A stretch of 64,000 bases of DNA from an uncultured Verrucomicrobiota bacterium. Lineage in GTDB: Bacteria; Verrucomicrobiota; Verrucomicrobiia; Limisphaerales; SXQI01. This document shows positions 4,817-40,044 of the stretch, piece by piece. The stretch is taken from NCBI GenBank assembly GCA_964478815.1, contig CAYZKY010000003.1, positions 23,442 to 87,441 of the forward strand, read 5' to 3'. The stretch's first letter is position 1. The number at the start of each line of letters is the position of its first letter. Under the pieces are notes generated by a model. That model was not told the DNA's origin. It searched no databases and worked only from the letters and a program-made list of their open reading frames with translations. Position numbers and translations under genes: made by a program.

Positions 4817-5119
4817 TCAAGCCCGCTGCAAGCGGCTTTTGCCGCCTCGCGAAACCGGCCGTCCATCAGTTCTCAACCACGCCGAACGAGCGAGGTGGAC
4901 GGCCTCGGCCAGCGCGTCTTTGGAAATCCTGCCCCCACCCCAGCGCGCCAGTATCACTTCCCAGGGATGCCCTGCCTCGATCTCCTCCAACACATCCGCG
5001 ACGAATACCCGCGTGCCTTTGAACGTGACCCGGCCATGACAAATCTCCGGATCGGCAACAATGTGTCGGCAGAGTTCGATCCGAACCGGTTTTTCACCAG
5101 GTTTTGCGGCGCGCGTCAT
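4817..5119 (-). CDS. DUF433-like (antitoxin-like HTH) small protein
   Basis: 100-aa ORF. The core ADPEICHGRVTFKGTRVFVADVLEEIEAGHPWEVILARW fits the DUF433 pattern as I remember it (dP-x3-G-x-P/V-x-x-GTR-x-V followed by a helical tail). No PIN or DUF5615-type partner ORF is adjacent. Confidence 0.65.
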   Translation of the reverse strand: MTRAAKPGEKPVRIELCRHIVADPEICHGRVTFKGTRVFVADVLEEIEAGHPWEVILARWGGGRISKDALAEAVHLARSAWLRTDGRPVSRGGKSRLQRA

Positions 5120-5193
5120 TGCCGGAATTTAGCCGGGACCTCTCCCAGTCTCAAAGCGCATTCGGGCCCAAGCGGCCGCGCCGCGCCCACCCT

Positions 5194-24871: not shown

Positions 24872-27800
24872 TCACAGCTCGACGATCCGGTAGAACCGGC
24901 GGGCCTGGTTGATCGTGTCCGTCGCGGTCGAACTCGCGCCGGTGGCGTTGACCGTCGTCAGAGCCGTCCATGCCGCATCGGCCAGCTCCGCCTTATATTC
25001 GATCCGATAGCTGGTGGCGGCTTCCGAGACCCACGTCATCGTCAATGTCCCATTCGCCGCCGCCACCGCCGAGAAACGCAGTCCGGCCGCCGGCGTGCCG
25101 CCATTGGCGGTGCCGGGCGTGGGGACGGCCAGCGTCTGGATCTCCGCGCCGCCGTTCGGCACCCGGCCCATGCTTTCATCTCCGTCCTGTTCTCCGAATG
25201 TTACGCTGTCGACCAGCGTGCCATTCGGCGCGAAAAGTCCGATCGTATCGCCCTCCGCGCTCAAACGGAACGAGGCGTGCAAGTCGCCGTTGTCGGCAGA
25301 TTCGCTGTCGGCCCAGACGAGCAGATACCCGCCGGCCGGAATGGTCACCCCGTTGGGGATGACGAATTGCCCCGGGCGTTCCAGATCGTCGGTCAGGCTG
25401 TAGCCGCTCAAGTCCACGGCGCCGGCACCGGCGTTGTACAGTTCGAACCAATCGTCGTAATCTCCATCGTCCGGATCGGGAATCGTGCTGACGTTCGACG
25501 CCATCCATTCGTTGATGAACACGGAAACCGGACCCGGCGACGCGTTATTGGCCGCCCCCGGCGTCGCGGTGAAGAAAAGCTGGCGGAGAACCGCCTGCCC
25601 ATCCGGGTACGCTCCATAGGCGCGCGCCGCCGGCAACGCTTCGTAGCTGATGTAGTCGAACACGACCGGCTGGCCGTTTTGGAGGCCAGCCAATCCCACG
25701 CTCCCCGTGCCGGCCGGCAAGCGGAAATTCGCATGCCATTGCGCGGGGGTGCTTTCCCCCGGCTCATTGTCCAGCCACACGACCACGAATTGCCCTGGGG
25801 CGATCGACGCCCCGGCCGGGAACGCCCATTTCGTCGGCTGGGCATAATCGTCGGTCAGGTACATCCCTGTCAGGCTCACCGCCGTCGCTCCCGAGTTATA
25901 GAGCTCCACCCACGGATCGCGATCGCCCGCCGCATCCGCCGGGCCGTTCAGGTTGCTGGCCACCAACTCATTCACCCACAGTCTCGGAAATGGCGTGAAG
26001 CTCGCGCGCACGGAGTTCGCGGCGCCCGGCGTCGCATTCCCAACGTGCATCGCCCAATTCCCAACGCGGGTCGTGTCCTGCGCCGGATCCACGACTTGCA
26101 GGGAGACCGGTGCTCCCAATGGGCCGCTCGGCCACGGAGCCACGCTGTCGTACCGCACCGCGGCGAGGACGGTTTGTCCATCGGCCGAGATGAGGCTCAG
26201 CGTCTCGCCTTCGTCATCCAGCGTGCTGCCGCTAAAGCTGCCGGCGATCGGGATGGTGTAGCCATAGGCTTCTCCAAAAGCCACTGGATCTCCCACGACC
26301 ACGAGGAAACCTCCCGGCACGATCACCGTGCCCGGATCGAACACGAAATCCAGCCCGTTGATCCGATTTCCCGACAAATCAAAAGCGGTGGTGCGCGACG
26401 TATTGTGTAATTCCACAAATTCCGCTCCCGGATTCGATGGATTGTACGCGATTTCGTTGAACACCACTCGCCCGGAGAACGCGTCGGGGTTGCCCGTATA
26501 GTTGACCGAGATGGTGTCCGTGGCTTGGCCCACCGCCTGGCCCGTTTGATCGAAACCTTCCACCCGGAGGAGATTCTGCCCCGGTCGCAGCGCCACGCGA
26601 ATTTCCCAGGCGGTAATGTCCTTCCATGTGATGGGATACTCCACCCCGTTCACCTGGATCGTCTTCACCTGGACGGGCGCATTGCCGGAGAGAACCAGCG
26701 TATTGCGGTTCGTTCCGAAGTTGTTGCCATTATTGATCGTGATGGCGAATCCGGAACCCACGCTCGCGACCTGGGAGAGGATGTACTGGCGCCGATCCGC
26801 GATCCAATCCTTGACCGTATCCGCCGGAGACACCGGCACCCCATTCGCCAGCAAGGCCTGATGCCGGGCATCGATGATCGGATTGACCCGTGAAGGCACG
26901 AACGGCCCGTGGGCGATCTCGTACAAAGCTCTCAGGTACGAGCGCCGGAACTCGATGGTGGCGTTGAACATCCGCTGCGTCACCTTGTCGATCGTGCCGT
27001 CGAAATGGGCCACGTCGAACAGGTCGGCGGTAGTGCCATCGCCCAGCCCGAAGGAAAACGCATTGTCCCAATGCATCAACGTCCATTTGCCCCCGGTCGG
27101 CTTGTAGGCGTACATGTTCTTTCCACGCCGGTAGCCGAAAGCATCCCAATCGCCCGAGGCGTGGCGCAGCGCCATGACCGCCATCCATTGGTCGACGTCG
27201 ATCAACTCCTTCAGCCGGGCCGTGAATTGTTCCTGGTTCGGTGTGTTCGCGGCCTCCACGAGGCGCAGCAGTTCCGAATAATCGTGATGGCTGTCGTTGA
27301 CCGCCCGCTTGCGGAACCACCACCGGTACCGCTCCTGTTTCAGTTCCGGCAATCCCGTCGCCAGATTCGTCGTCGTCAAGGCGATCAACTCCGCGTCCAG
27401 ATTGCCGAACCCGAACGTGTCGTTGTACTCGAACCAGTCTTCGATCTTGTGCAGGACGCCCTCGGCGGCGTTCGGATACCATTGCTCGATGAAATCGCTG
27501 CTCGGTTGTTGTGCATCCTCGAACACCAGCCCCGCGTTCCGGTCAACCCCGTTCAGACTGAGATAGTGGTACCGCCGGTAGTTCGCCGGCTGCCCCATCT
27601 GATCGGCCATCCAGAAGAAGACCTGTTCCCGCACGCCTGTCGAATCGCTGGCAATGTTCGAGGGCAGATTCAACACGAAATCCGTCTGGCCCAGAAAAAG
27701 ATCGTCCTCCGGCGCGATCAAGAGGTAGTTGCAAAAATTCCCCAGCGGCCCGTTATACCCGCCCCAGTGGAATGGGCTGCCGCTGTACAGCGCCCCCGCG

Positions 27801-30800
27801 TTGTAAATCACCCGCTCGTCGTCATAAACGAACGTCGCGTCGAGCGGCTTGTTGCTCGCCTGCTCGCGACGGGTCCAGCGGTCGAGCGTCCGATGGCTGA
27901 CCCAGATGCGGTACATGCCCAACGTGCTGTTCGCCGGGCGCGTCTCGCCGACCCGCACCAACGCTTCCTGCACGGGCGCCGCCGCGGGGAATCGTGCGCT
28001 CGCTCCCACCGAATCGGCCGCTTCCACGTAAAACGCCACCATCGTTCCATTCGTTTGCTCGGGAATTGACGCGCTGTAATAGCCCGCCCCGCTATAGACC
28101 ATCGGCAGGACGCTGTAATTCGTGCTGGGATCGATGCGATACCGCACCGAAACCAGCGCCAGCCCATCCGGATCGTCGACCTGCGCCGACACGCGAATCG
28201 TCTCGCCCGGCGGCGGCAGCACCGGGCTGTGCGTGACATGCGCGATCGCCGGACCGGCATTGGCCACCCGGCGGCTGTTCGCGGCTCCCGGCGTGCCGAG
28301 GTTGGACGGCAAGGCCATCCGCCCCGCCGCTTCCAAATAATTGCCGTGGATGCGCACCAGGATTTCCGGCGTGCCCCGCAGCCATTTCACGTCGGCCCGG
28401 ATGGTGGCGATCATCCCGTTCGTCACGCCTTGCGTCAGCCGGCCTCGAATCCGGTTGGCCGAGGTATCCCCCCGCGCCGCGGCCCGAATGTGCAGCGAGT
28501 TCGGAGTGCCGTTTCCTTCGGTCTGGTTCAGCACCGAGTCATCGTGCGTCCCGCCGGACAGCCAGTCGCGCAAGCCTTGCGTGAAGCCCGCGTTCGAAAC
28601 GAGATTGGTCGTGTTGCCGTCGAGAACCACCTGCACGTTGTCCAGCAGGGCCTCCCCTTTATCCATGAGCAGGACATGGACATTGCGGCTGGGATTGACC
28701 GCCGTAAAGTTTGTCATGCCGTGGTCCAAAATGCCCCGGCGTTCGATCGTGGTCCAAGTGCCCTTGGCCGTCTCATCGCTGTCCGCCCAATTCGAGGCGA
28801 AGGCCGGATCCGCATCCGGATCGACCAGTTCCAGGCTGCTCCCGCCGCCATCGGCCCATTCGCCCCAGCGTCCCCCCGTGCCGTAGGCCACTTCATTGAC
28901 CACCACGTAATCGGTGACGGCCGGGGTCGATCCGGCCGACGGAGTGATCTGCGGCATGCTCAGCGTGATCCGTTCCCCATCGTTCGCCAACTGGCCGTTG
29001 AAATTCCCGAAGCTGTTCGCCGCCGTCAATTGGGGGTGGCTCGCCCGCAGTTTGGCGAGATCCTTCGCCACCACCGCGAACCCGCCCGCCGGGAGCACGG
29101 TGGGAGACGCGAAGGTATGCGAAATGCCATCCCCGAGCCGCCAGCCCCCGATATCCACGGCCTGCCCGCTGCGATTGAACAACTCGACATACTCCAGATC
29201 CCCATCGCCCGAGACCGGATTGTACATGATCTCGTTGATGACCACCGGCGAGAGCCGCCGCTCGCGATTGGCCACCCCCGGCGTGGGAGCCGCCAGCAGC
29301 CGAATCTCCGGGCTTCCATCCGGAAACCGCCCGCTCGCAACGCCCGCCGCCTGCGCCGCAAAACGCAGCGCGGTGATGACATGGGTCTTGATGGGATTCC
29401 GCACGATGATCCGCTCGCCCCCGGAACTCAACGCGAACCCAAGTTGCGTTTCGGTAAAACTGACGTAACCCAGCGCCGGAACCACCGTTCCCGCCGGCAC
29501 CTGGTACTTGTCCGAATTGGGTGTATCGCTGATCCAGACACCCGACAAATCCACCGGTTGGGCGCCATAGTTAAACAACTCGATGAAATCGACCGCCGGA
29601 AGGTCGGAATTCGCCAAAAACTCGTTGATTACAATCCCTTCGTATCCCGTCGGGGCCGCCGGCTCCGCCCGGCCCGGCGATCCTCCGATAAACGAACTCA
29701 CGGACCAGGCGCGAGGATCCTTCTCACCGTAGGTCGGCCTGGAGAGAATCATCGAATGCCCGGCTTCGTCCGCCGCCACCGGCCAGCCTCCCCCGGTGTC
29801 GTAATTCACCTCGAACAAATGCGCTCCGTGCGCATTCTCGAGACGCACCGTGCCCTGTCCATTCGGCAGCGATTCGGCATACCCCCCATACACCCGCGGC
29901 ACTCCGTAAACGATCTGGATATCCGACGGAACCGGCGCCACCACCAGGAACCCGTGCGGCGGAATGAACACGCCATCGGGCAGTGTGTAGTTGATATCGC
30001 CCCGCAGCCGGTACCCGCCGATGGTTTCCGTGAACGGATTGCTGTTATGCAGCTCGATATACTCCAGATTCCGCGCATCCGTCCGCACGGCCGGCGCAAA
30101 CATGATCTCGGAAATCACCAACCCGGACCGCCGGGTCGAGGGCCCCAGGCGTTCCCGGCCGCCATAGACCGTCGCGGTGGGCAGGCTCACCACCTGGTAG
30201 GAAAACTCCGCCCGGCTGTCGGGATCGATCTCATTCGGCTGATCCGCCCGGTCCCGAATGTTGCTCACCACCACCGCATACGATCCGCCGAGGGTCTGAG
30301 GCGAGGTCTGGAGCAGCACGATCTGTCCCGACGGGTCTAATGTCGCTCCCAACACGGTGATGCCGTCGAAAACCTGGTAATTGCTCAACCGGGTGGCGCT
30401 GACCGGATCGACCGGCTTCGAGAATGTGATCGCCACCGCATCGGCCCGGCCCGGGTTTTGGGCGGAGAGGATCAACGGCGCCACCAAGTCCCGATCGACC
30501 GTGAGAACCGCCTCCGTGCTCTGCGCCTGGCCGAACTGATTCACCAACACCACGCGATACCGGCTCCCGCTGTCCGCGATGCGCGTCGCCGGCAGGAACA
30601 AGGTTTGGTTGGTTTCGCCAAGCAGGTCCACGCCGTTGCGCTGCCACTGCGCCTTCACCCCGCTGCGATTCGCGAGCTGAACCGAGAACAAGGCCGGCTG
30701 CCCTTCCGTCACCCGCACATTGGCGGGCTGCCGCGTGATCTGCGGCGGGATCAGCTCCGCCAGGCTGCGCGAACCGGGGATCGGCTCCTCGATCGTTCCA

Positions 30801-31372
30801 TCCGGAAGCTGCCACCGGACCGCCAGATGGTCGGAACCCGTCGTTTCGATCATCAGCGCCTCAATGTAGTACATCCGGTCTGCTTCCAGTTGAAGCGGCT
30901 GCGACTGTTGGGTGGCCAATTGATCCCAAAACCGGGGCGGCACCGAAAAATCGTTCCACGCGATCTCGCGCTTGTTCGCCGGATCCTCGTCGGTGCTGAG
31001 CCAGAGCTGCGAAGCGAAGTTCGCCGCGATCCAAAACGTATAATCCCCCGTCGTTGGCGGGATCAGATACCCGCGCACCCGCTGCCCATAAAAATCGGCG
31101 TAGTTGGCCGGCGTCTCGAAATCCTCCAGCAGCTCCACCGTCGCGGGCGAATCCGGGAACGAGGGATGATTCAACAATCCGTCGATGCCGTTAAACGCGA
31201 ACACGTTGGTGTACACCTCGCGGATAAACCCGTTCTGGGCATGCGCGGAGGGGGCCAGCAACAGGAACACGGCACAAAGGCTCGCTACGATAAAGGCTTT
31301 ACGACTCAGGGTATTCACAGCTAGGTGCGGGCGAGTCTGAGGAGCGGTCACCGCTTTGTCAAACTCCGACAT
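24872..31372 (-). CDS. Giant (2166 aa) secreted protein with a PA14-like N-terminal domain, Ig-like region, about 7 lamin-tail domains and a CotH kinase-like domain
   Basis: A signal/TM segment is followed by a PA14-like region (YGQRVRGYLIPPTTGDYTFWIAANFASQLWLS). Repeated LTD signatures include VISEIMFAP...YIELHNSNP, VINEFLANS...FIELFNYG, VINEIMYNP...YVELFNRS, VFNEIAYNP...FVELHNTS, WVNELVASN...WVELYNSG and FINEWMASN...WFELYNAG. A CotH-like core lies in the middle (YRIWVSHRT...YNAGALYSGSPFHWGG). Confidence 0.88.
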   Translation of the reverse strand: MSEFDKAVTAPQTRPHLAVNTLSRKAFIVASLCAVFLLLAPSAHAQNGFIREVYTNVFAFNGIDGLLNHPSFPDSPATVELLEDFETPANYADFYGQRVRGYLIPPTTGDYTFWIAANFASQLWLSTDEDPANKREIAWNDFSVPPRFWDQLATQQSQPLQLEADRMYYIEALMIETTGSDHLAVRWQLPDGTIEEPIPGSRSLAELIPPQITRQPANVRVTEGQPALFSVQLANRSGVKAQWQRNGVDLLGETNQTLFLPATRIADSGSRYRVVLVNQFGQAQSTEAVLTVDRDLVAPLILSAQNPGRADAVAITFSKPVDPVSATRLSNYQVFDGITVLGATLDPSGQIVLLQTSPQTLGGSYAVVVSNIRDRADQPNEIDPDSRAEFSYQVVSLPTATVYGGRERLGPSTRRSGLVISEIMFAPAVRTDARNLEYIELHNSNPFTETIGGYRLRGDINYTLPDGVFIPPHGFLVVAPVPSDIQIVYGVPRVYGGYAESLPNGQGTVRLENAHGAHLFEVNYDTGGGWPVAADEAGHSMILSRPTYGEKDPRAWSVSSFIGGSPGRAEPAAPTGYEGIVINEFLANSDLPAVDFIELFNYGAQPVDLSGVWISDTPNSDKYQVPAGTVVPALGYVSFTETQLGFALSSGGERIIVRNPIKTHVITALRFAAQAAGVASGRFPDGSPEIRLLAAPTPGVANRERRLSPVVINEIMYNPVSGDGDLEYVELFNRSGQAVDIGGWRLGDGISHTFASPTVLPAGGFAVVAKDLAKLRASHPQLTAANSFGNFNGQLANDGERITLSMPQITPSAGSTPAVTDYVVVNEVAYGTGGRWGEWADGGGSSLELVDPDADPAFASNWADSDETAKGTWTTIERRGILDHGMTNFTAVNPSRNVHVLLMDKGEALLDNVQVVLDGNTTNLVSNAGFTQGLRDWLSGGTHDDSVLNQTEGNGTPNSLHIRAAARGDTSANRIRGRLTQGVTNGMIATIRADVKWLRGTPEILVRIHGNYLEAAGRMALPSNLGTPGAANSRRVANAGPAIAHVTHSPVLPPPGETIRVSAQVDDPDGLALVSVRYRIDPSTNYSVLPMVYSGAGYYSASIPEQTNGTMVAFYVEAADSVGASARFPAAAPVQEALVRVGETRPANSTLGMYRIWVSHRTLDRWTRREQASNKPLDATFVYDDERVIYNAGALYSGSPFHWGGYNGPLGNFCNYLLIAPEDDLFLGQTDFVLNLPSNIASDSTGVREQVFFWMADQMGQPANYRRYHYLSLNGVDRNAGLVFEDAQQPSSDFIEQWYPNAAEGVLHKIEDWFEYNDTFGFGNLDAELIALTTTNLATGLPELKQERYRWWFRKRAVNDSHHDYSELLRLVEAANTPNQEQFTARLKELIDVDQWMAVMALRHASGDWDAFGYRRGKNMYAYKPTGGKWTLMHWDNAFSFGLGDGTTADLFDVAHFDGTIDKVTQRMFNATIEFRRSYLRALYEIAHGPFVPSRVNPIIDARHQALLANGVPVSPADTVKDWIADRRQYILSQVASVGSGFAITINNGNNFGTNRNTLVLSGNAPVQVKTIQVNGVEYPITWKDITAWEIRVALRPGQNLLRVEGFDQTGQAVGQATDTISVNYTGNPDAFSGRVVFNEIAYNPSNPGAEFVELHNTSRTTAFDLSGNRINGLDFVFDPGTVIVPGGFLVVVGDPVAFGEAYGYTIPIAGSFSGSTLDDEGETLSLISADGQTVLAAVRYDSVAPWPSGPLGAPVSLQVVDPAQDTTRVGNWAMHVGNATPGAANSVRASFTPFPRLWVNELVASNLNGPADAAGDRDPWVELYNSGATAVSLTGMYLTDDYAQPTKWAFPAGASIAPGQFVVVWLDNEPGESTPAQWHANFRLPAGTGSVGLAGLQNGQPVVFDYISYEALPAARAYGAYPDGQAVLRQLFFTATPGAANNASPGPVSVFINEWMASNVSTIPDPDDGDYDDWFELYNAGAGAVDLSGYSLTDDLERPGQFVIPNGVTIPAGGYLLVWADSESADNGDLHASFRLSAEGDTIGLFAPNGTLVDSVTFGEQDGDESMGRVPNGGAEIQTLAVPTPGTANGGTPAAGLRFSAVAAANGTLTMTWVSEAATSYRIEYKAELADAAWTALTTVNATGASSTATDTINQARRFYRIVEL

Positions 31373-31562: not shown

Positions 31563-32804
31563 ATGAAGAAACTCGTTGCCCTAGGCGCGGTCGCGGTCGC
31601 GGTTGCCGCAGGAACAGTCGTTGCGCTGCTTTGGCTCCGCCCCACCGCCGTAACCCCGCTCGCGCCGCTCGCTCCTGATCGACCCGCTGCCGCGCCATCG
31701 ACCGTCGGCCCGGCGGCCTCCAAGCCAAGCCCGGCCGCGCCAACCACCCACTCAGGCTCCCCCGGCGCGAACCTCGCCGCATCTCTCCGCGCCCTCGCCG
31801 CCGAGGTGAACAACCGTGCCGATGAATTCATCGCGACCATGTCCGCCGCCGAGATCGAACTCGCCCTCAATCATGTCTGGAACCAGGAGGGCAATCGCGA
31901 TCTCCCCCATCTCCTGCTCCGCCGCTGGACCGAGGAATCTCCCACCGACGCCGGCGCCTGGCTCCTGAAGCAGCCTCCCAGCCCGAACCGCCGCGACGGC
32001 GCCGCCACGCTCGCCACCGTCTGGGCCAATGTCGATTCCGCGGCCGCCACCGCCTGGGCCCGCCAATTGCCGGCCGAAGAAATGGAAAGCAGCGTCCTCG
32101 CCATCGGCTACGAACTCGCCCGTTCTTCGCCCAAGGACGCCCTCTGGCTCGCCGCGGCCTTGCCCTCCAACGAATCCCGCAACGGCCTGATCGATCACGC
32201 CATCAGCCAATGGGCCGTTCAGGAGCCCGAAGCGCCAGCCGATTGGGCCGCGCAAATCCCCGCCTCGCCCCTGCGCGACCAAGTCTTCGCCCGCCTCGCC
32301 ACCTCCATGAGCGAGACCGATCCCATTGCCGCCGCCGATCTGGCCCTCGAACACCTCGCGCCCGGCCCGCAGCAAAACGACGCCATCGTCGGCGTCGTCC
32401 AACGCTGGACCCAGCGCGCCCCCTCCGAAGCCGCCGAATGGGTGCGCCAATTCCCCGAAGGCGAATTGCAAGCCACCGCCATCGAAAATGTCCTTCAGCT
32501 CTGGGCCGGCCAGGATGCATCAGGCGCCGGGAACTGGCTCAACGATCTCGACCCCAGCCCCCTGCGCGACGCCGCCCTCTCCGCCTATGCCGGCCAGCTC
32601 GCGGCTTCCGACGCGCGTGGAGCCATCGATTGGGCCGCCAAGATCGAAGATCAAGCCCGCCGCGCCGGCGAACTCGAACGTCTCGGAGCCCGCTGGATCG
32701 CCAGCGACCGCGCCGCGGCCCGCTCCTGGGTGCAAACCGCCCCGCTGCCGGACGACGCCCGGCAACGCCTCCTGGCCATCCCCGAACTCCGCCGCGAAGA
32801 GTAG
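31563..32804 (+). CDS. Secreted or membrane-anchored alpha-helical repeat protein, function unknown
   Basis: The start is placed at MKKLVALGAVAVAVAAGTVVALLWL (the track ORF begins at 31491). The body is made of degenerate ~40-aa units ending in A-x2-W (AGAWLL, ATAWAR, PADWAA, AAEWVR, AGNWLN, AIDWAA, ARSWVQ). Confidence 0.6.
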   Translation: MKKLVALGAVAVAVAAGTVVALLWLRPTAVTPLAPLAPDRPAAAPSTVGPAASKPSPAAPTTHSGSPGANLAASLRALAAEVNNRADEFIATMSAAEIELALNHVWNQEGNRDLPHLLLRRWTEESPTDAGAWLLKQPPSPNRRDGAATLATVWANVDSAAATAWARQLPAEEMESSVLAIGYELARSSPKDALWLAAALPSNESRNGLIDHAISQWAVQEPEAPADWAAQIPASPLRDQVFARLATSMSETDPIAAADLALEHLAPGPQQNDAIVGVVQRWTQRAPSEAAEWVRQFPEGELQATAIENVLQLWAGQDASGAGNWLNDLDPSPLRDAALSAYAGQLAASDARGAIDWAAKIEDQARRAGELERLGARWIASDRAAARSWVQTAPLPDDARQRLLAIPELRREE

Positions 32805-32838
32805 CCGCCGGACCCCGCCGCGCCGCCCGGAATTCGCG

Positions 32839-33606
32839 CTACCACCAAAACGACGGGCTGCCCGTCGTCCGAATCACCATCTTCTCGAACTTCTTCCACG
32901 CCGTGTGCCCGTCCAGATACGCGATGTTCCCGCCCGCGGGCATTTTCCCGGTGCGATCCAGATGCGCCGACTGATGCCCCGCCCAGCCGCCGTTGATCTT
33001 GATGTACTGGTTGCGCGTGCGATCCCGTTCATTCTCCCCGTTCGAGATCGTCGCATCCGCGATCATCTCCCGCTCGCTCGGCCCCTGCGTCACTTCCTCC
33101 GTCCCGACCTTGAACGTCTTCGAAGTTACCGCATCGTTAATGTTCGTCGCCCGGATCCGTCCAGCCTGCGGAAAACTCATCGCGTAACCGATCACCCGGT
33201 AGCCCGTCCCTCTCGCCGTGTTGGACGTAAACCGCCACAGCTCCTCATTGTCCTGCTTCTGGAACGATGGGCAGTACATCATGTGCCGCGAGGTCCCGCT
33301 CTTCAGGAGCGCCTGCGCCACGTTCTCCGGCATGTCCCACGGCCAGTACCCCGGCGCTTTCGAAGCATCCAGCAGGATCGGCAGCTTGTCGTTGTAATCC
33401 GTCGCATACATCATCGTCGCCAGCGCGAACTGCCGCAGGTTGCTGTTGCATTTCACCACGATGGCCTTCGATTTCGCCCGCGCCAGCGCCGGCAATAACA
33501 TGCTCGCCAGAATCGCGATAATCGCGATCACGACCAGCAGCTCGATCAGGGTGAATCCAGAGCTGCGGCCACGCGCAACTCGGAACGGGAATGGGCGGTT
33601 CAACAT
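32839..33606 (-). CDS. Prepilin-type N-terminal cleavage/methylation domain protein (DUF1559-like pseudopilin)
   Basis: N-terminus [32 protein letters not shown] and C-terminal [11 protein letters not shown]. Confidence 0.85.
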
Positions 33607-34085
33607 AAATGTTTATGGGTTAAATCAGAATTTGCGGCGCAAACCCAAAACGCAAGTGTGCGTTTATTCGCACAGCGGCCTTTCGCACGCCACCCGACCC
33701 CCCACCCGAACATTCTTGCCGGGCTGCAATTTTGAGAATCTCCCCCTCCCCTCTCTCCAAACCCTCCCCGCCTCGCCAACCCCCGCCCGGCCACCCATCC
33801 CCCACCCCGCTATGCCCCTTGGCCCCAAGACCTTGCGCCGCCGCCCGCCACCCCGCCCCCGGACGCCTGTCGCGCTCGAACTAATGGAATCCCTGTTGCT
33901 TTTGGGATTGGTATCGATTCTGCTCAGGAAATACCCGTGACTCGGTTCGGACAAACCACTTTTGCAAGCTCGAGTCCGCCTGCTCCCGGGGCCCCGTTGG
34001 CCCATGGGAAGCCTGCGCGTTGCCCTCGAGCCTGCCCCGCCCGGCTTCCCTGGAAGCCCCGTCCCGCCGTGCCCCGCCCCGGCCT

Positions 34086-34592
34086 ATGAAACCCATCGAT
34101 GTCCTTCCCCCGGGCGAACGCAGCATCCTGAATCGGATTGCTCTGTCCTTCCGCATGAACCGCTTGCGCAAGGAATACGAAACGAACTGCCCGGCCAGCC
34201 TCCCCGTCGCCCGCCGCCTCCTCCTCCATTTCTCCTACCTCGAGCTCTACTGGTCCCGCATCGCCGCCTACCAGGACGCCTCCGGCCTCGAAACCGCCAA
34301 TTTCACCCCCGCCGAACAATTCTACCGCATCGTCGTCCTCACCGAGATCGCCCGCCAGGATGTCCGGCGCAGCGCCGGCCTTATCAAAGGCCTCTCCAAC
34401 GACTTCGCCGCCTACGACCAGGCCTGCCGCTCCCTCTCCCACGAACTCAACCCCTTCGAGTTCGCCGAACGCTGCGGCCAGTGCCACCAACTCGCCGCCG
34501 AGATCAACGCCACCCACTTCGGCGCCCAGCCCGTCATGCGCTGGCGCAACGAAGAACAAGTCGAAACCGCCTTCTACGTCAAACGGCGCTAG
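34086..34592 (+). CDS. Hypothetical protein (168 aa), first gene of the NTPase-TPR cluster
   Basis: The ORF has normal-looking, non-repetitive composition (MKPIDVLPPGERSILNRIALSFRMNRLRKEYETNC...). I recognise no motif. The track start at 34020 adds a Pro/Arg-rich leader that I consider unlikely. Confidence 0.5.
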   Translation: MKPIDVLPPGERSILNRIALSFRMNRLRKEYETNCPASLPVARRLLLHFSYLELYWSRIAAYQDASGLETANFTPAEQFYRIVVLTEIARQDVRRSAGLIKGLSNDFAAYDQACRSLSHELNPFEFAERCGQCHQLAAEINATHFGAQPVMRWRNEEQVETAFYVKRR

Positions 34593-34826
34593 CGCGCTCG
34601 AAGCCCGCGCTTGATAACTCTCTGCCGCGGTTGCTCGGAACTGCCCCAGCTCTCCAGATCGTAAAAAGATTACGTTGCATCCGCCTGCTCGCAACGCCCG
34701 CTCCCCCCGGCCAACAATCCCCGATCACGTCCCCTCCACCGTCCTCCAGCCCTGCGCATCCTCGCACCTGTGCGCGTGAAATCCTTGCGACTTCCATCCC
34801 CTGCGTGCTTCAATCCCGCATCGATC

Positions 34827-36203
34827 ATGCTTCGACCCGCGAAAAAACTGCGTGAGATTCGCCAGCTCTGCCACCTGCGCTCCCTGAAGGGAGAAGAGCT
34901 GGATGCGCTCTTTGTTGAAACAGGCGATGCCCGCGATGCCGAACAAAGCGTTCGGCAGACTATCCGCTCCGCGTTGGACGATGACTCGCCCCAGCGCCTC
35001 CTCCTGTGCGGCCATCGCGGGTGCGGTAAAAGCACCGAATTGGCCAAGCTGGTCAAGGAGCTGGGCGCAGGCTGGCTTTGCGTTACTTTTTCGATTGTCG
35101 AGGACCTCCCGCCAGTGGGTGTTCTAGCCGAGGAAATACTCCTCGCCATTGCCCATCGACTCGTTCAGGCCGCCGCAACGGAAAAACTCCAGGCTCTCGA
35201 CACCGATCCTCGCATCAAAGCCATCGATGAATGGTTTCGAGCCATCACCAAGACCGAGACACGCAACCGCGAGAGTAGCGTTGAAGCGAATGCGGCGACC
35301 GAAATCGGCACTGGCGGCCTGCTCGCCGGCCTTTTCAAGGTGTCGACTCGTTTCAGCAGCGATCTCAAATACCGCGGCACCGCCGAAACCAGTGTTGTCG
35401 AGGAAGTCCGCAAGCGCCCGGCCGATCTCATCGAGCAAATCAATCGCCTCGTCGAAAGCATTCAGGAAGCCCTGCATCCCTCCGGCCGGCGCTTGCTCAT
35501 CATCGTCGAAGACCTCGACAAGCTCAGCATTGCCGACGCACACCGCGTCTTTATCCAGAACGGCCAAATGCTGGCCAATATTCGCGCCCACATCATCTAC
35601 ACCATCCCGATTTTCACGTTCACGTCTCCGGATGCCGATGCCATGCGGGCGCTGTTCGACGACGTCTTTTCGCTCCCGATGATTAAGGTCTGCCAGCCGG
35701 GCGGTGCCAAAGCGGAGCAGGGCTTCGACGTCATTCGGAAGATTGTCGACCGCCGCATCGATCCGGGCGCGCTGGATCGTGATGCGTTGGAACTGCTCAT
35801 CGAAAAGACCGGCGGAGTCCTCCGTCACATCTTTGAGGTTCTCCAAACTGTCACCAGCATGACCCGCCTGCGCGAGCCGCCGATCCGCCGGGAACATATC
35901 ATCTACGGTTTGGGAAGACTTCGCACCCAGTTGGGCATTCAGATCGCATTGCCCCGCCATGTCGACATTCCGGACCTGAACAAAATCGAGCAGCTCTACG
36001 AACGTCTGCGAAATTGCGCCGAGCAATGCCAGAAAGGCAAACCGTGTCCGCCGACCGGTAATCCCATCGATCAGGTCCTCCTTCAAAGTTGCGCCTTGGT
36101 CGAGTATAATGGCGAACGCTGGCTGGGGGTCCATCCCCTGATCATCGATTATCTCAAAGACGTTGGATACGAAGTTCGCGCAGACGCTGGATCCGAAGTT
36201 TGA
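34827..36203 (+). CDS. P-loop NTPase resembling the N-terminal ATPase module of the 1195-aa protein at 5194..8781
   Basis: Walker A LLLCGHRGCGKST (GHRGCGKST at nt 35010-35036). Walker B LLIIVEDLDK (nt 35493-35522). A sensor-1-like strand AHIIYTIP follows. An insert of about 140 aa lies between Walker A and B and contains a short hydrophobic patch GTGGLLAGLF. The first ATG is at 34827; the track uses a GTG at 34770. Confidence 0.8.
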   Translation: MLRPAKKLREIRQLCHLRSLKGEELDALFVETGDARDAEQSVRQTIRSALDDDSPQRLLLCGHRGCGKSTELAKLVKELGAGWLCVTFSIVEDLPPVGVLAEEILLAIAHRLVQAAATEKLQALDTDPRIKAIDEWFRAITKTETRNRESSVEANAATEIGTGGLLAGLFKVSTRFSSDLKYRGTAETSVVEEVRKRPADLIEQINRLVESIQEALHPSGRRLLIIVEDLDKLSIADAHRVFIQNGQMLANIRAHIIYTIPIFTFTSPDADAMRALFDDVFSLPMIKVCQPGGAKAEQGFDVIRKIVDRRIDPGALDRDALELLIEKTGGVLRHIFEVLQTVTSMTRLREPPIRREHIIYGLGRLRTQLGIQIALPRHVDIPDLNKIEQLYERLRNCAEQCQKGKPCPPTGNPIDQVLLQSCALVEYNGERWLGVHPLIIDYLKDVGYEVRADAGSEV

Positions 36204-38319
36204 TCACGCCGAGGAACTCGGCCTGCTTCGCCGTGCCCTCGCCGAGCCGGTCCGGCAGTTCATCCTCGTCGAGTTCGATTCCATCCACCGTTTCCGCCCT
36301 GTCCTCGACGAATTGGTCGCGCTCGCTCCCGAGCGGCACGCCGTTATCCTCGACTTCGACTTCCGTCGTGATCGCCCCGCCGACCTCCTAACGACGGCCC
36401 GCTCTCGTTTAGGTGTTGCCGGGACCGAAGAAATACCCCTCCTCGTTCTGCTCGGCGTGGATGCGTTTGAACAGGACCCCGCCGCGCCCCTCGCCGCCGC
36501 CTTCTGGAAGGCCATGAACCTGGCCCGCGAAGCTTGGGACGGCTTGGGAACCCAGCTTCTCCTCTGCCTCCCCATCTGGAGCTGCCGCCAAGCCGCCACG
36601 CACGCCGATCATCTGCTTGCTTGGGCCTCCCTCCGCATCCACCTCGCCGCCCCCCCAGCACCATCCGGCTGGCTCGCCAACGAAAAACCGCTCCCCTCCG
36701 TCGCTCTATTGGGTGATTTCGGCATCTCTCCTGCGTTGGCCCGGGAGCGCCTCGTTGAACTCAAGCAAAGCTGGCAGCAGGCCGGCGCGCGCTCCGAAGA
36801 TCCCTCCAGCTTCGTCCGCCGCTTCTTCATCCCCATGCTAGAGGCCGCCCTCGCCGCCGGCGATCTCCCCGCCGCCCGCGAAGCCCGCGACGCCGCTTGC
36901 TCCACCGCCCTCATCCCCGAAGAAGACCAGCCCCGCTGGCACGAGTTGAACGTCGCCCTTGCCATCGCCTCGCACGATTTGCACCTAGCTGAAGAACATA
37001 CTCGCAAACTGCTTGAACTCGCTGAGCAAAAAGTCAGTGCGCGCATCGGAGAAACCGCGCTCACGGCCTTAGGGCGCCAAGCCAACTTCTTGGAGCAAAC
37101 TGCGCATTTTGATTTGGCGGAATCACTTTACCGTCGCTTTTTGGCCACTCTAGAACTCCGTTATGGCCCAGAAAATCCCCTGATTGCTTCGTGCCTTAAT
37201 AATCTTGGCCTTTTGTTGCATACGACGGGACGATCAGTCGAAGGTGAAGTCCTGTTGCGGCGTGCCCTCGCGGTCGATGAAAGAGCTTTTGACCCTGATC
37301 ACCCCAATATCGCTGTCCGGCTTAACAATTTGTCCAACATCCTGCTAGCCGCAAAACGATTCGGAGAGGCTGAAATCCTTTTACGTCGCGCATTGGCCAT
37401 CGCCGAACGAAGGTTTGGCACAGATCATCCGTCAGTAGCTGGCTACCTCAACAATCTAGCTCAGATACTACTAAAAACTAACCGTCTCGCTGAGGCCGAG
37501 CCACTCATGCGCCGCGCTCTCCTCACGATTGAGCGAAGCGTCGGCACGGACGACCCCAGGGTCGCGGGCGCGCTTAATAATCTCGCCCAATTGCTTCACA
37601 GCACCAGCCGCTTGTCGGAAGCGGAGCCCCTGATGCGCCGTGCGCTTGCTATTGACGAACGTATCTTTGGCCCAGAACACCCGAACGTCGCGAGAGATCT
37701 CAATAATTTGGCAGAGTTATTGAAGGATACAGGTCGCATAGATCAAGCGGAGCCTCTTGTTCGTTCCGCTTTGGCAATTGAAGAGAGAGCTTTTGGGCCT
37801 TTGCACCACAATGTTGCTCGCAGCCTCAACAATTTGGCGCTTCTGTTGCAGGCCACCAATCGCTCACCCGAAGCTGAAGCCCTGCTGAAGCGTGCGTTGG
37901 AAATAAGCGAGAAAGATTTTGCAGCTAATCAGCCGAACGATCTTACGGCTGCTCTGAATAATTTGGCGCTATTTTTGAAAAGCACCAATCGTCTTGCCGA
38001 AGCCGAACACCACTTGCGTCGCGCCTTGGAAATCGATGAAAAGATTCTGGGAATGAACCACCCAACCGTCGCCATCCGACTAAACAATTTGGCCCAATTG
38101 TTGTACGATGCCAATCGCCTGGACGAAGCCGAGCCTCTGCAGCGCCGCCACCTCGAGATTTTTCTAAACTTCACGCAGACAACCGGGCATCGGCACCCCC
38201 ATCTCAATGCCGCCTTCAACAACTACTTCGCCATCCTCACCCAAATGGGCGACACCCCCGCCCAAGCCCAAGCCAAAATCGCCGCCCTCGCCCAATCCTA
38301 CGGCGTCTCCCTCGGCTGA
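36163..38319 (+). CDS. TPR-repeat protein (about 8-9 TPR_10/TPR_12 KLC-type repeats) with an uncharacterised ~270-aa N-terminal region
   Basis: Repeats of 42 aa follow the consensus LNNLAxLLxxTxRxxEAEPLxRRALxIxExxxGxxHPxVA. The only canonical start in the open frame is a TTG at 36163, 41 nt inside the preceding gene in the +1 frame. Confidence 0.8.
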   Translation: MDTKFAQTLDPKFDHAEELGLLRRALAEPVRQFILVEFDSIHRFRPVLDELVALAPERHAVILDFDFRRDRPADLLTTARSRLGVAGTEEIPLLVLLGVDAFEQDPAAPLAAAFWKAMNLAREAWDGLGTQLLLCLPIWSCRQAATHADHLLAWASLRIHLAAPPAPSGWLANEKPLPSVALLGDFGISPALARERLVELKQSWQQAGARSEDPSSFVRRFFIPMLEAALAAGDLPAAREARDAACSTALIPEEDQPRWHELNVALAIASHDLHLAEEHTRKLLELAEQKVSARIGETALTALGRQANFLEQTAHFDLAESLYRRFLATLELRYGPENPLIASCLNNLGLLLHTTGRSVEGEVLLRRALAVDERAFDPDHPNIAVRLNNLSNILLAAKRFGEAEILLRRALAIAERRFGTDHPSVAGYLNNLAQILLKTNRLAEAEPLMRRALLTIERSVGTDDPRVAGALNNLAQLLHSTSRLSEAEPLMRRALAIDERIFGPEHPNVARDLNNLAELLKDTGRIDQAEPLVRSALAIEERAFGPLHHNVARSLNNLALLLQATNRSPEAEALLKRALEISEKDFAANQPNDLTAALNNLALFLKSTNRLAEAEHHLRRALEIDEKILGMNHPTVAIRLNNLAQLLYDANRLDEAEPLQRRHLEIFLNFTQTTGHRHPHLNAAFNNYFAILTQMGDTPAQAQAKIAALAQSYGVSLG

Positions 38320-38384
38320 ACTTCCGCCCCCTCGCCCACTCCGCCGGGCTCCCTCCAAAGCCCGCCAACGTCCGGTCCCGGCCG

Positions 38385-38446
38385 GAAACCCCAACCGGGG
38401 TTTCATCCTTCAGCCCGGGGTTGCCGCCCCGCGGTTACCCCGGGTT
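38385..38446. repeat. Structured intergenic repeat, copy C (two-hairpin element)
   Basis: Hairpin 1 is GAAACCCC-aacc-GGGGTTTC (38385-38404). Hairpin 2 is CCCGGGGT (38414-38421) paired with ACCCCGGG (38437-38444). The core AGCC-Y-GGGGTTGCCG is shared with copies at 61441 and 62013. Confidence 0.6.
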
Positions 38447-38620
38447 CGCCCCCGCCACAAGACCCCTACCTCGAAGAGGTTGAATCAAAACCCCCGTCAC
38501 AATCCCTCGCCAAAATTCTTGTCCACCACGTTTTGGCGTCCGGGAACGACCGTCCCTCCGCCACTCCTGTCTGCCACCCCTCATCCCGTCGTGCTTGGTC
38601 ATTCGTAATTTAGGCTTAAA

Positions 38621-38702
38621 AGTCAACATTATACAGAATTTCCGCTTGCACCGGCCGCCAGACGAGTCGATATTCCACGCATGAACTACAAAAATGTTGA
38701 CT
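38621..38702. repeat. 10-bp perfect inverted repeat in the AT-rich patch of the 38.3-39.05 kb spacer
   Basis: AGTCAACATT at 38621-38630 and its reverse complement AATGTTGACT at 38693-38702. The same 10-mer recurs at 47135-47144. Confidence 0.5.
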
Positions 38703-39016
38703 ACCGCCCGCTGGTTATGCCCAGCGCCCACCTCGCCCCGCCCGAACTCGCCCGCCAAATCTCTGCTCCATCCCGCTCCATAACCCCAGCCACCATCGCT
38801 AATCATTCAACATTTCAACACCTACTCCCCGCTCACAATCCCTCCAACCCACCCCTCTCCGACCCGCGTAAATTGGACTTCGTAGGACCAAAAACGACCG
38901 CTCCCGCCGATTTTGCCCCGGCATCCGGTCTACATTTACTACTCGATGATCCACCCGCCGCGCCCTCCGATGAACCGCCTCCTCCCCGGCGCAACCCCGT
39001 TCCCCGCGCGCGTTCC

Positions 39017-39045
39017 TTGACGGTGGCGGGGGCGTTTTGTACGGT
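39017..39045 (+). promoter_or_regulatory. Sigma-70-like promoter candidate for bamD (would give a leaderless or near-leaderless mRNA)
   Basis: TTGACG (39017-39022), a 17-nt spacer, then TACGGT (39040-39045). The ATG at 39052 lies 6-7 nt after the -10 element. Confidence 0.25.
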
Positions 39046-39051
39046 GGGCGG

Positions 39052-40044
39052 ATGAGTCGACGGTTGTTCCGCTTGTGCCTCTTTGCCATACTGGCCGCGT
39101 TCGCGACGGTGCGCACCCCCGCGCCCTTCATTTACGTGGCGGGGGAAGGATGGAGCTACGAGCCGGTGGGCGGGAAAAAGTGGACGCGCACGCGGGCCAA
39201 GGATCAGTTGGATGTCGCGAATGAAGCGTTCACCAACAAGGAGTTCCGCCTGGCCGAACGGGCCGCCCGGCGCACGGTGCGCGTCTGGCCCTTCTCCGAC
39301 TACGCGCCGGATGCCCAATACGTCGCCGGCCGGGCGATGGAGGAGCAAGGCAAGGACGAAAAGGCGTTCAAGGCTTACCAGCAGTTGCTGGAGAAATATC
39401 CGAACAGCACCAATTACAACGAAGTGGCTGAGCGCCAGTATCTGATCGCCAACCGGTACCTGGCCGGCAAATGGTTCAAGCTCTGGGGCGTCATCCCGTT
39501 CTTCCCATCGATGGACAAGACGGTGCAGATGTACGAGAAGATGATCAAGAGCGGCCCCTACAGCGAGGTGGCTCCGCAGGCGCAGATGAACATCGGGGCG
39601 GCGCGGGAGAAACAGAAGGATTATGCCGCGGCGGTCAAGGCGTACGAGAGCGCGGCCGACCGGTATCACGACCGGCAAGTCGTCGCCTCGGACGCTACCT
39701 ACAAGGCCGGCGAAGCGTACACGAAGCAGGCGAAGACGGCGGAGTACGACCAGAGCGTGGCGGGCCATGCGATCGGCTCGTACACCGATTTCGTGACGCT
39801 GTTTCCGGAAGATACGCGAGTTCCGGAAGCGCAAAAGCGGATCGAGGAATTGCGGACGGAACAGGCGCGCGGCAGCCTTTTGGTGGCGCGCTTTTACGAG
39901 AAGAAGAAAAAGTGGGATGGCGCGCTGGTCTATTACAATGAAGTGATCCAGCGCGATCCCAATTCGAAATATGCCGAGGAAGCGAAGCAGCGGATTGAGC
40001 AGATCAAGAAACGCACCGCCGCTGCGGAAGCCCGGGCGCAGTAG
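39052..40044 (+). CDS. bamD: Outer-membrane assembly lipoprotein BamD/YfiO-like (TPR)
   Basis: 330-aa ORF with a signal sequence and TPR-like helices throughout. Typical BamD-like phrases are FPEDTRVPEAQKRIEELRTEQARGSLLVARFYEKKKKWDGALVYYNEVI. The ATG at 39052 is preferred over the track TTG at 39037. Confidence 0.75.
   Translation: MSRRLFRLCLFAILAAFATVRTPAPFIYVAGEGWSYEPVGGKKWTRTRAKDQLDVANEAFTNKEFRLAERAARRTVRVWPFSDYAPDAQYVAGRAMEEQGKDEKAFKAYQQLLEKYPNSTNYNEVAERQYLIANRYLAGKWFKLWGVIPFFPSMDKTVQMYEKMIKSGPYSEVAPQAQMNIGAAREKQKDYAAAVKAYESAADRYHDRQVVASDATYKAGEAYTKQAKTAEYDQSVAGHAIGSYTDFVTLFPEDTRVPEAQKRIEELRTEQARGSLLVARFYEKKKKWDGALVYYNEVIQRDPNSKYAEEAKQRIEQIKKRTAAAEARAQ

Follow-up and report, generated by a model that had tools for sequence, protein, structure and literature searches.

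In this paper we describe a pair of overlapping genes in a window of 64,000 nucleotides (nt) from an uncultured Verrucomicrobiota bacterium, the window being the whole stretch of DNA that was analysed. The first gene (gene A) encodes a P-loop NTPase of 458 amino acids (aa) and the second (gene B) a partner protein of 718 aa, which is composed of an unannotated N-terminal domain, called the N-domain here, and an array of TPR units. A preliminary description of the locus, made from the sequence alone, had grouped both genes with an upstream gene for a 168-aa protein into a three-gene, defence-type module. Our results show the linkage of genes A and B, the folds that their products are predicted to adopt, the loss of the P-loop in the partner, the variety of its C-terminal modules and the cassette-like presence and absence of the pair, and we hold these architectural claims together with high confidence. 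A role of the pair in conflict or immunity is likely but unproven, being plausible through domain associations. The features of the locus are the following, with our own numbers for loci (L) and proteins (P) used for relatives throughout:

34086-34592, + strand: 168-aa orphan gene; open reading frame, assigned to the conserved flank and outside the module.
34596-38353, + strand: putative exchanged cassette (leader, gene A, gene B and a 34 nt tail), delimited by blastn against L034.
34596-34826, + strand: non-coding cassette leader, the presumed promoter and ribosome-binding site region; absent from L034, conserved in L064 and L065.
34827-36203, + strand: gene A, P-loop NTPase of 458 aa with an ATG start; ATPase domain, lid and winged helix.
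35010-35036, + strand: Walker A motif GHRGCGKST, aa 62-70 of gene A, read from the translation.
35499-35522, + strand: Walker B motif IIVEDLDK, aa 225-232 of gene A, read from the translation.
36163-38319, + strand: gene B, partner protein of 718 aa; open reading frame with a TTG start.
36163-36969, + strand: partner N-domain, aa 1 to about 269; alpha/beta domain (aa 15-161) and helical linker, the constant, family-defining part.
37060-38319, + strand: array of nine KLC-type TPR units (TPR_12/TPR_10), from the translation and Pfam; the variable module of gene B.

All three reading frames lie on the + strand and are co-directional, as had been reported. The longest reading frame for gene A begins with a GTG (34770-36203), but the ATG at 34827 is the likelier start because the N-termini of homologues and the nearest relative agree with it. 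Genes A and B overlap by 41 nt in different frames, which confirms that the NTPase and the repeat array are on separate, overlapping reading frames, while the small gene and gene A are separated by 234 nt (177 nt with the GTG start). The long spacers said to flank the locus are present, with 479 nt upstream (33607-34085) and 717 nt downstream (38320-39036). The repeat elements said to occur in the downstream spacer amount to a few imperfect two-copy matches of 18-19 nt, and no tandem repeat was found there. The window contains no Rfam family. No promoter or terminator signal exceeded the shuffled expectation and the leader has no sigma-70-type consensus, so that its promoter function is inferred only. 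Within the overlap (36163-36203) we observed an in-frame 24-nt insertion relative to the nearest relative, L064 (LDTKF-AQTLDPKF-DHAEELG in the window; LDTKFDYAEELG in L064), and the C-terminus of the gene A product is 8 aa longer than in L064 (458 vs 450 aa).

Gene A models as an active Cdc6/Orc1- and STAND-like P-loop NTPase. Both motifs that had been pointed out, GHRGCGKST and IIVEDLDK, are present in the translation, and in an alignment of 33 homologues the residues G62, H63, G65, G67, K68, S69 and T70 of Walker A and V227, E228, D229, D231 and K232 of Walker B are invariant. Pfam assigns AAA_16 (2.8e-08), and the AlphaFold model, with a mean predicted local distance difference test (pLDDT) score of 89.2, shows an ATPase domain, a lid and a winged helix. 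The top Foldseek match is the archaeal Cdc6/Orc1 structure 2qby_A (2.1e-06), accompanied by 1fnn and 2v1u; further fold matches are archaeal ATPase_2 proteins (2qen, 2fna), ORC and Cdc6 of eukaryotes, CED-4, Dark, MalT and the RADAR protein RdrA. Those to Cdc6/Orc1, archaeal ATPase_2, CED-4, Dark and MalT span about 400-480 columns, with TM-scores of only 0.35-0.5, and a sequence search of the PDB with the NTPase profile gave P-loop-level matches only. The protein search returned more than 200 homologues with strongly conserved sequences, all of them stand-alone proteins of 436-479 aa (typically about 445 aa) except for a few shorter fragments.

The label KAP- or STAND-like that had been given to gene A is supported. 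Besides the Walker motifs gene A has the three-part nucleotide-binding module of STAND proteins. The lid contains a conserved 'KTGGVLRH' (invariant at T328, G330, V331 and H334, almost so at G329 and L332) and a 'GVHP' with invariant H436 and P437 follows the C-terminal hairpin; as judged by eye, the two lie where the GxP and MHD motifs of STAND proteins would be expected. Sensor or effector domains in the same polypeptide, which belong to the STAND definition, are found neither in gene A nor in any of its homologues. Membership of the KAP family in the Pfam sense is not reached, with 14.6 bits against the 20-bit cut-off. Like KAP NTPases, gene A has a large insertion between Walker A and Walker B, and some of its homologues are annotated as KAP. 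This insertion, helical and about 120 aa long (aa 101-219), lies after strand 2 and before the Walker B strand, and it explains the weak, sub-threshold KAP_NTPase matches. On inspection of the model, however, the insert consists of soluble-looking helices and a disordered loop, with no obvious membrane span.

The N-domain of the partner has no match in Pfam, NCBIfam or PADLOC. A word-indexed search gave one match, and an exhaustive HMMER search of 1.84 billion proteins recovered the family, with 106 representatives at E<=1e-3, in nearly all of which the domain is N-terminal. It is an unannotated family, which could be used to find further systems. The AlphaFold model of residues 1-310, built with an alignment of 47 relatives, has a mean pLDDT of 88.6. 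In this model five strands alternate with helices between aa 15 and 161, and from about residue 180 helices lead into the TPR array, so that the five-stranded alpha/beta core and helical lid of the AAA+ fold are both present. The top Foldseek match is the delta subunit of E. coli DNA polymerase III (Pol III delta, 1jr3_D, 3.7e-04), followed by FtsH, ClpB, ORC subunits, DnaA, Hda, MuB and Rif2, and all 50 top matches are P-loop ATPases, mostly AAA+ and a few RecA. Pol III delta is itself an AAA+-like protein without a P-loop, which works only in a complex of active ATPases.

In none of 22 aligned N-domains do we find a GxxxxGK[ST] between strand 1 and helix 1; instead a conserved E37 ends strand 1. 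The same alignment shows invariant residues elsewhere (L22, F114, W115, N119, R122, E123, W154, P224 and W259) and the conserved clusters 'FWxxMNxLRExW' (between strands 3 and 4), 'ADHLxxW' and 'RRYYLPMFEAA'. Structure prediction, fold comparison and alignment thus agree with the earlier suggestion that the first 270 or so residues, with alternating strands and helices and no Walker A, form a degenerate NTPase-like or adaptor domain, and we model the N-domain as an AAA+-like domain that has lost its P-loop. A profile-profile comparison with the NTPase family gave a co-linear but non-significant alignment, and for this reason the AAA+ assignment is made at the level of the fold only.

The remainder of gene B is the TPR array, which had been estimated at 8-9 KLC-type repeats. 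We count nine LNNL-type units of 42 aa in the last 420 residues, in agreement with Pfam (TPR_12 at 2.7e-80, TPR_10 at 4.5e-68), and no tandem DNA repeat was found in this region. What follows the N-domain differs between relatives. TPR_12-type repeats occur in 74 of 90 N-domain representatives and TIR (TIR_2) in 8. TIR-type partners make up 10 of 17 metagenome loci, a share biased by search patterns that favour this subclade and not an unbiased frequency. The NTPases of the TIR-type loci L038, L039 and L040/L041 are 43-46% identical to that of the window. Longer partners are N-domain-NACHT-FGE-sulfatase in L016 and N-domain-TIR-Metallophos-NACHT-FGE-sulfatase in L027. In P0220 and two other loci an N-domain-TIR-nSTAND1 protein is followed by a third gene for an AAA_22-type P-loop protein. 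This three-gene sub-variant (L039, L054, L058) consists of the NTPase, the N-domain-TIR-nSTAND1 protein and a P-loop protein of about 750 aa, the N-terminal half of which, in L039, looks hydrophobic and membrane-spanning by eye.

The array is also the fastest-diverging part of the pair, and it changes abruptly between very close relatives. L064 has a small protein of 100% identity to that of the window and an NTPase of 95.3% identity, and its partner protein stays at 94-96% identity across most of the N-domain (86-96% in blocks of 50 aa, to about residue 250). Beyond this point the identity per 50 aa is 52, 14 and 52%, and the nucleotide alignment ends at window position 36969, which is the boundary between N-domain and TPR region. 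The G+C content (GC) also changes at this boundary, from 66.4 to 53.8% in the window and from 66.7 to 55.8% in L064, so that within one reading frame the TPR array has a GC of 52-55% and the N-domain of 66%. The break fits either an exchange of the repeat array or a turnover of repeat units.

Genes A and B lie next to each other, and always A before B, in about 50 loci that represent at least eight phyla, a result seen from searches on the NTPase side as well as on the partner side. A scan of one genome per species recovered 29 loci. When 32 genome and metagenome loci were searched by tblastn with residues 1-300 of the gene B product, 28 proved to have the N-domain immediately after the NTPase. 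The four exceptions are a contig that ends inside the NTPase, L016, where the N-domain is present on inspection, L028, a truncated NTPase copy (313-aa reading frame) with no detectable N-domain, and L033, a small-gene contig without the NTPase. Conversely, the NTPase lies directly upstream in all 17 metagenome loci found by N-domain patterns, which were derived from a 6-sequence alignment and favour the TIR-type subclade, and also in all four N-domain-TIR contigs examined (L038, L039 and L040/L041, the last two carrying the same partner protein). In three metagenome or genome contexts from the protein search, too, the next gene after the NTPase encodes an overlapping TPR protein. The junctions commonly range from -4 to +4 nt, mostly a 4-nt overlap or abutting genes. 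The pair occurs in Verrucomicrobiota, Desulfobacterota, Planctomycetota, Spirochaetota, Nitrospirota, Lentisphaerota, Hydrogenedentes and Gammaproteobacteria, with NTPase identities of 36-49%. All-against-all clustering of the reading frames in the roughly 50 loci revealed no third conserved gene, only antisense shadow reading frames and unrelated ABC-transporter ATPases. The gene neighbourhoods support the view that the NTPase and the repeat protein are obligate partners, coupled in translation.

Comparison with contig L034, from a close relative, identifies the pair as a cassette. Positions 1-1844 of L034 match window positions 32764-34595 at 92.5% (blastn), ending 3 nt after the stop of the small gene, and positions 5078-5659 match 38354-39017 at about 82%. 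Between them, in place of the pair, L034 (1845-5077) encodes a 302-aa prepilin-type N_methyl protein and a 694-aa Ig/Calx-beta protein. Because the homology resumes on both sides around different genes, 34596-38353 appears as an exchanged unit, and to judge from these alignments it is a self-contained, horizontally exchanged two-gene module. The leader of the module recurs in L064 and L065 with 92-93% of its nucleotides identical. Neither direct nor inverted repeats flank the cassette, and no recombinase, transposase or integrase recurs beside the pair in the clustered reading frames of the roughly 50 loci. Several copies look damaged. In L036 (11320-14959) two DDE transposase genes have reduced the partner to 94 aa, and in L026, L030, L031 and L032 the NTPase reading frame is truncated or fragmented, where an assembly error is possible.

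Plasmids of Acaryochloris and Nostoc encode distant NTPase relatives (23-27% identity) directly upstream of giant proteins with nSTAND1 and a WD40 array. The overlapping partners in L059, L060 and L061 are about 1290-1890 aa long and annotated as WD40-repeat proteins, and the first 800 aa of the L059 partner comprise an N-terminal region, a TPR-like region and nSTAND1. In profile-profile comparison the N-termini of these three partners align with the N-domain co-linearly, without reaching significance. The two Acaryochloris loci (L059, L061) are on conjugative plasmids, in islands with NACHT, NB-ARC, TIR, HicAB or RelE genes, and on a Calothrix plasmid an AAA_16-TIR protein is encoded between the NTPase relative and the WD40 protein. 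A further plasmid, p057_J of Nostoc sp. C057 (L063, 5300-8224), encodes a 974-aa 'SAV_2336 N-terminal domain-related' protein with an NTPase-like region (aa 23-341, 23.5% identity). Its gene adjoins those of a MoxR and a VMAP protein, which gives a distant link between the NTPase family and MoxR-vWA ternary systems.

TIR, calcineurin-like phosphoesterase, NACHT, nSTAND1 and FGE-sulfatase domains are recurrent in bacterial conflict systems (Kaur et al.; PMC7159879, PMC8195603). We place the core of gene A and N-domain in the prokaryotic conflict and immunity network because its relatives attach TIR, TIR-nSTAND1, NACHT-FGE-sulfatase or TIR-Metallophos-NACHT-FGE-sulfatase. The best overall explanation, which we consider probable, is that the two-gene module is a split STAND- or NLR-like switch of the immune type. 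In such a switch the TPR array would bind the trigger, probably a foreign protein, while the inactive AAA+-like domain of B might dock onto A in the way of the inactive subunits in clamp loaders and ORC. ATP binding and hydrolysis by A would then control the assembly of a hetero-oligomer. In the TIR variants assembly could cluster the TIR domains. Clustering is the usual route by which TIR domains are activated as NADases. In the TPR-only variant either the ATPase itself may be the executor, or an effector encoded elsewhere may be recruited. Both options are suggested by the observation that superstructure-forming repeats often hold the 'effector position' in conflict systems of this kind (Kaur et al.; PMC7159879, PMC8195603).

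There are several observations that weigh against this explanation. The viral and phage collections that were searched contain no relatives on phage or viral contigs, and most of the TPR-type loci are found among housekeeping genes (dnaX, recR, bamD, purC) and not in defence islands. As the preliminary description had already remarked for the locus, no recognisable effector domain is present in A or B of the window (Pfam, NCBIfam, PADLOC), and neither is modelled in PADLOC 2.0.0: the best matches of the NTPase in PADLOC-DB 2.0.0 have E values of 0.009-0.015 and cover the P-loop only, the partner has no match, and the relatives match generic TIR models only. The AAA+ call for the N-domain is one of fold similarity, with Foldseek E values of about 1e-3 to 1e-4 and TM-scores of about 0.3. 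The physical complex of A and B is inferred. Furthermore, the drop in similarity of the TPR region concerns about 90 aa of a short-read contig, for which gain or loss of repeat units or misassembly is possible. The earlier description as a defence-type module gains circumstantial support from the domains found in relatives, and is weakened by the missing effector and by the context of the TPR-type loci.

A different question is whether the unit has been delimited correctly. In a three-gene system the 168-aa protein, which the preliminary description had left as the unknown component, would act as effector or third component. The small gene is indeed co-directional with the pair and adjacent to it both in the window and in L064. 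It is also real and under purifying selection, since of the codons that differ from L033 64 are changed synonymously and 24 non-synonymously, and third positions account for 76 of the 108 nt differences. But its product has only two database homologues (99% and 86% identity), both on contigs without NTPase or TPR gene (L033, L034), and went undetected by tblastn in 49 other pair loci (32 genome loci and 17 metagenome loci). Moreover, the gap that separates it from gene A contrasts with the overlap of A and B, and the neighbour of the small gene differs by relative, being an aminotransferase in L033 and the N_methyl protein in L034. Pfam, NCBIfam, PADLOC and PHROGs give no match to the protein. 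We assign the gene to the flank because the homology with L034 covers it and stops 3 nt past its stop codon, and by these comparisons it is best described as a real, lineage-restricted orphan that belongs to the conserved flank and not to the module. The three-gene system is thereby largely refuted and very improbable; a lack of conserved linkage, which had been named as evidence against the cluster, concerns the small gene only and the linkage of A and B holds. The opposite error, that a single NTPase-TPR STAND gene was broken by a frameshift or sequencing error and that the locus is a pseudogene or artefact, can be regarded as refuted. It would account for the 41-nt overlap in different frames, and P0151 (965 aa) appears to join both parts. 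However, the similarity of P0151 to the NTPase ends at residue 336, beyond which it reads as out-of-frame low-complexity sequence, so that this candidate fusion is likely a frameshift artefact, and genuine fusions of NTPase and partner, whose existence the preliminary description had left as a question, were not found among the homologues. The more than 200 stand-alone homologues end at the same conserved C-terminus, and the split, overlapping arrangement recurs in the roughly 50 loci across various phyla and assemblies.

Two further readings accept the pair and give it another role. The fold matches of the two proteins include the filaments of VchTnsC and MuB, and the cassette takes the place of other genes where the site is conserved, as might be expected if an AAA+ regulator of transposition or integration (TnsC- or MuB-like) were paired with a TPR target selector. 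We think this highly unlikely: Cdc6/Orc1 gives stronger matches than TnsC and MuB, whose matches amount to generic AAA+ similarity, no transposase, integrase or recombinase accompanies the pair recurrently, the cassette is without terminal direct or inverted repeats, and the insertion sequences seen in L036 disrupt the pair instead of travelling beside it. More serious, if on balance unlikely, is a non-defence accessory module, in which an ATP-dependent regulator, assembly factor or chaperone would hold a cellular client with its TPR arm, comparable to MalT-type signal-transduction ATPases or AAA+ adaptor pairs. Such a role agrees with the missing effector domain in A and B, the housekeeping surroundings of most TPR-type loci and the lack of a PADLOC match. 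The role is less easily reconciled with a patchy distribution across phyla in which the NTPase identity stays high, with the differences in presence and absence between close relatives and the pseudogenised or insertion-disrupted state of some copies, with the abrupt divergence of the TPR array between near-identical loci, or with the fusion of the same core to TIR, Metallophos, NACHT, nSTAND1 and FGE-sulfatase, modules characteristic of conflict systems.

Returning to the split switch, we can also imagine a more specific form of it, which we regard as speculative and rather improbable. The NTPase and the P-loop-less N-domain might together form an unrecognised adaptor-executor core that takes many sensors (TPR, NACHT-FGE-sulfatase, nSTAND1-WD40) as well as TIR, and the hetero-oligomeric ATPase of the TPR-only form would itself be the effector, acting against invaders without a canonical toxin domain. 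The ATPase may in this case, for instance, use its winged helix to bind nucleic acid, or it may act on an invader protein that has been captured, by remodelling, sequestering or disassembling it. The TPR-only form in any event poses the question of what the output is when an effector domain is absent.

The surroundings of the locus showed some additional features. The window has a GC of about 63%, and the neighbouring genes include prepilin-type N_methyl proteins, bamD, lptE and bamB-like genes, a gene content that suggests a genome of Verrucomicrobiota or Planctomycetota type. Downstream of the cassette, the interval 38354-39017 that is about 82% conserved with L034 is an apparently non-coding stretch of about 660 nt upstream of a bamD-like gene (39037-40044), in which we found no Rfam match and no convincing reading frame. 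A C-rich 19-nt tandem repeat (3.6 copies, 70% matches) occupies 33742-33810, in the spacer that separates the small gene from the prepilin-type gene. Further upstream, 24872-31372 on the minus strand encodes a predicted secreted protein of 2166 aa with repeated modules ('VINE..YNP' segments), as read from the translation.

STAND- and NLR-type receptors are usually single chains, in which an effector, a nucleotide-binding switch and a sensor follow one another. The Avs/AVAST, bacterial NACHT and NB-ARC-TPR proteins share with the pair a P-loop NTPase, a lid, a winged helix and a sensor of TPR, WD40 or FGE-sulfatase type. They differ from it in that the pair consists of two polypeptides, has an additional inactive AAA+-like domain at the head of the repeat protein and lacks an N-terminal effector, and no Avs or NLR model in PADLOC-DB 2.0.0 matches A or B. 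The pair family thus splits the switch from the sensor, and behind the dead AAA+-like domain that heads the second protein the downstream module is exchanged between lineages, be it TPR, TIR, NACHT or nSTAND1 receptors. Active and inactive AAA+ proteins are also mixed in the delta and delta-prime subunits of the clamp loader and in ORC, and here the N-domain has its best match in Pol III delta and the NTPase in Cdc6/Orc1. This resemblance is structural and mechanistic only, as we see no sequence homology and no link to replication, and the distribution of the pair is accessory and patchy. If A and B assemble as proposed, they would represent a compact and widespread active/inactive AAA+ hetero-oligomer that provides bacterial conflict systems with a modular core for signalling.

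Among bacterial STANDs the sensor is most often made of TPR-like repeats (PMC13581612). The MoxR-vWA ternary systems (iSTAND, iSTAND2) likewise combine a constant NTPase core and an inactive NTPase-like module with a diverse variable position occupied by TPR, TIR or FGE-sulfatase (PMC7159879, PMC8195603), but they are ternary where the pair is binary, and no MoxR or vWA genes lie beside the pair in the loci examined. The closest described analogue is the nSTAND2 operon, a mobile two-gene system in which an active STAND with winged helix is followed by an eroded NTPase-like module with TPRs and variable modules (PMC8195603). The partner is written 'nSTAND2+wHTH+TPRs+HEPN', and an active/inactive hetero-multimer has been proposed for it (Kaur, Iyer, Burroughs and Aravind 2021, eLife 10:e70394; PMC8195603). 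The pair has the same architecture, that is an active gene followed by an inactive module with variable modules. There are also differences: nSTAND2 partners end in HEPN or GT4 and occur mainly in Gammaproteobacteria (PMC8195603), while the partner here ends in TPR alone and those of its relatives in TIR, NACHT-FGE-sulfatase or nSTAND1, and the N-domain, which was the part compared, has no profile similarity to nSTAND2 (hhalign against 12 source-data sequences, probability 0.8-1.2%). We therefore class the pair as a split, NTPase-centred sensor module that is related in kind to known systems and not categorically new.

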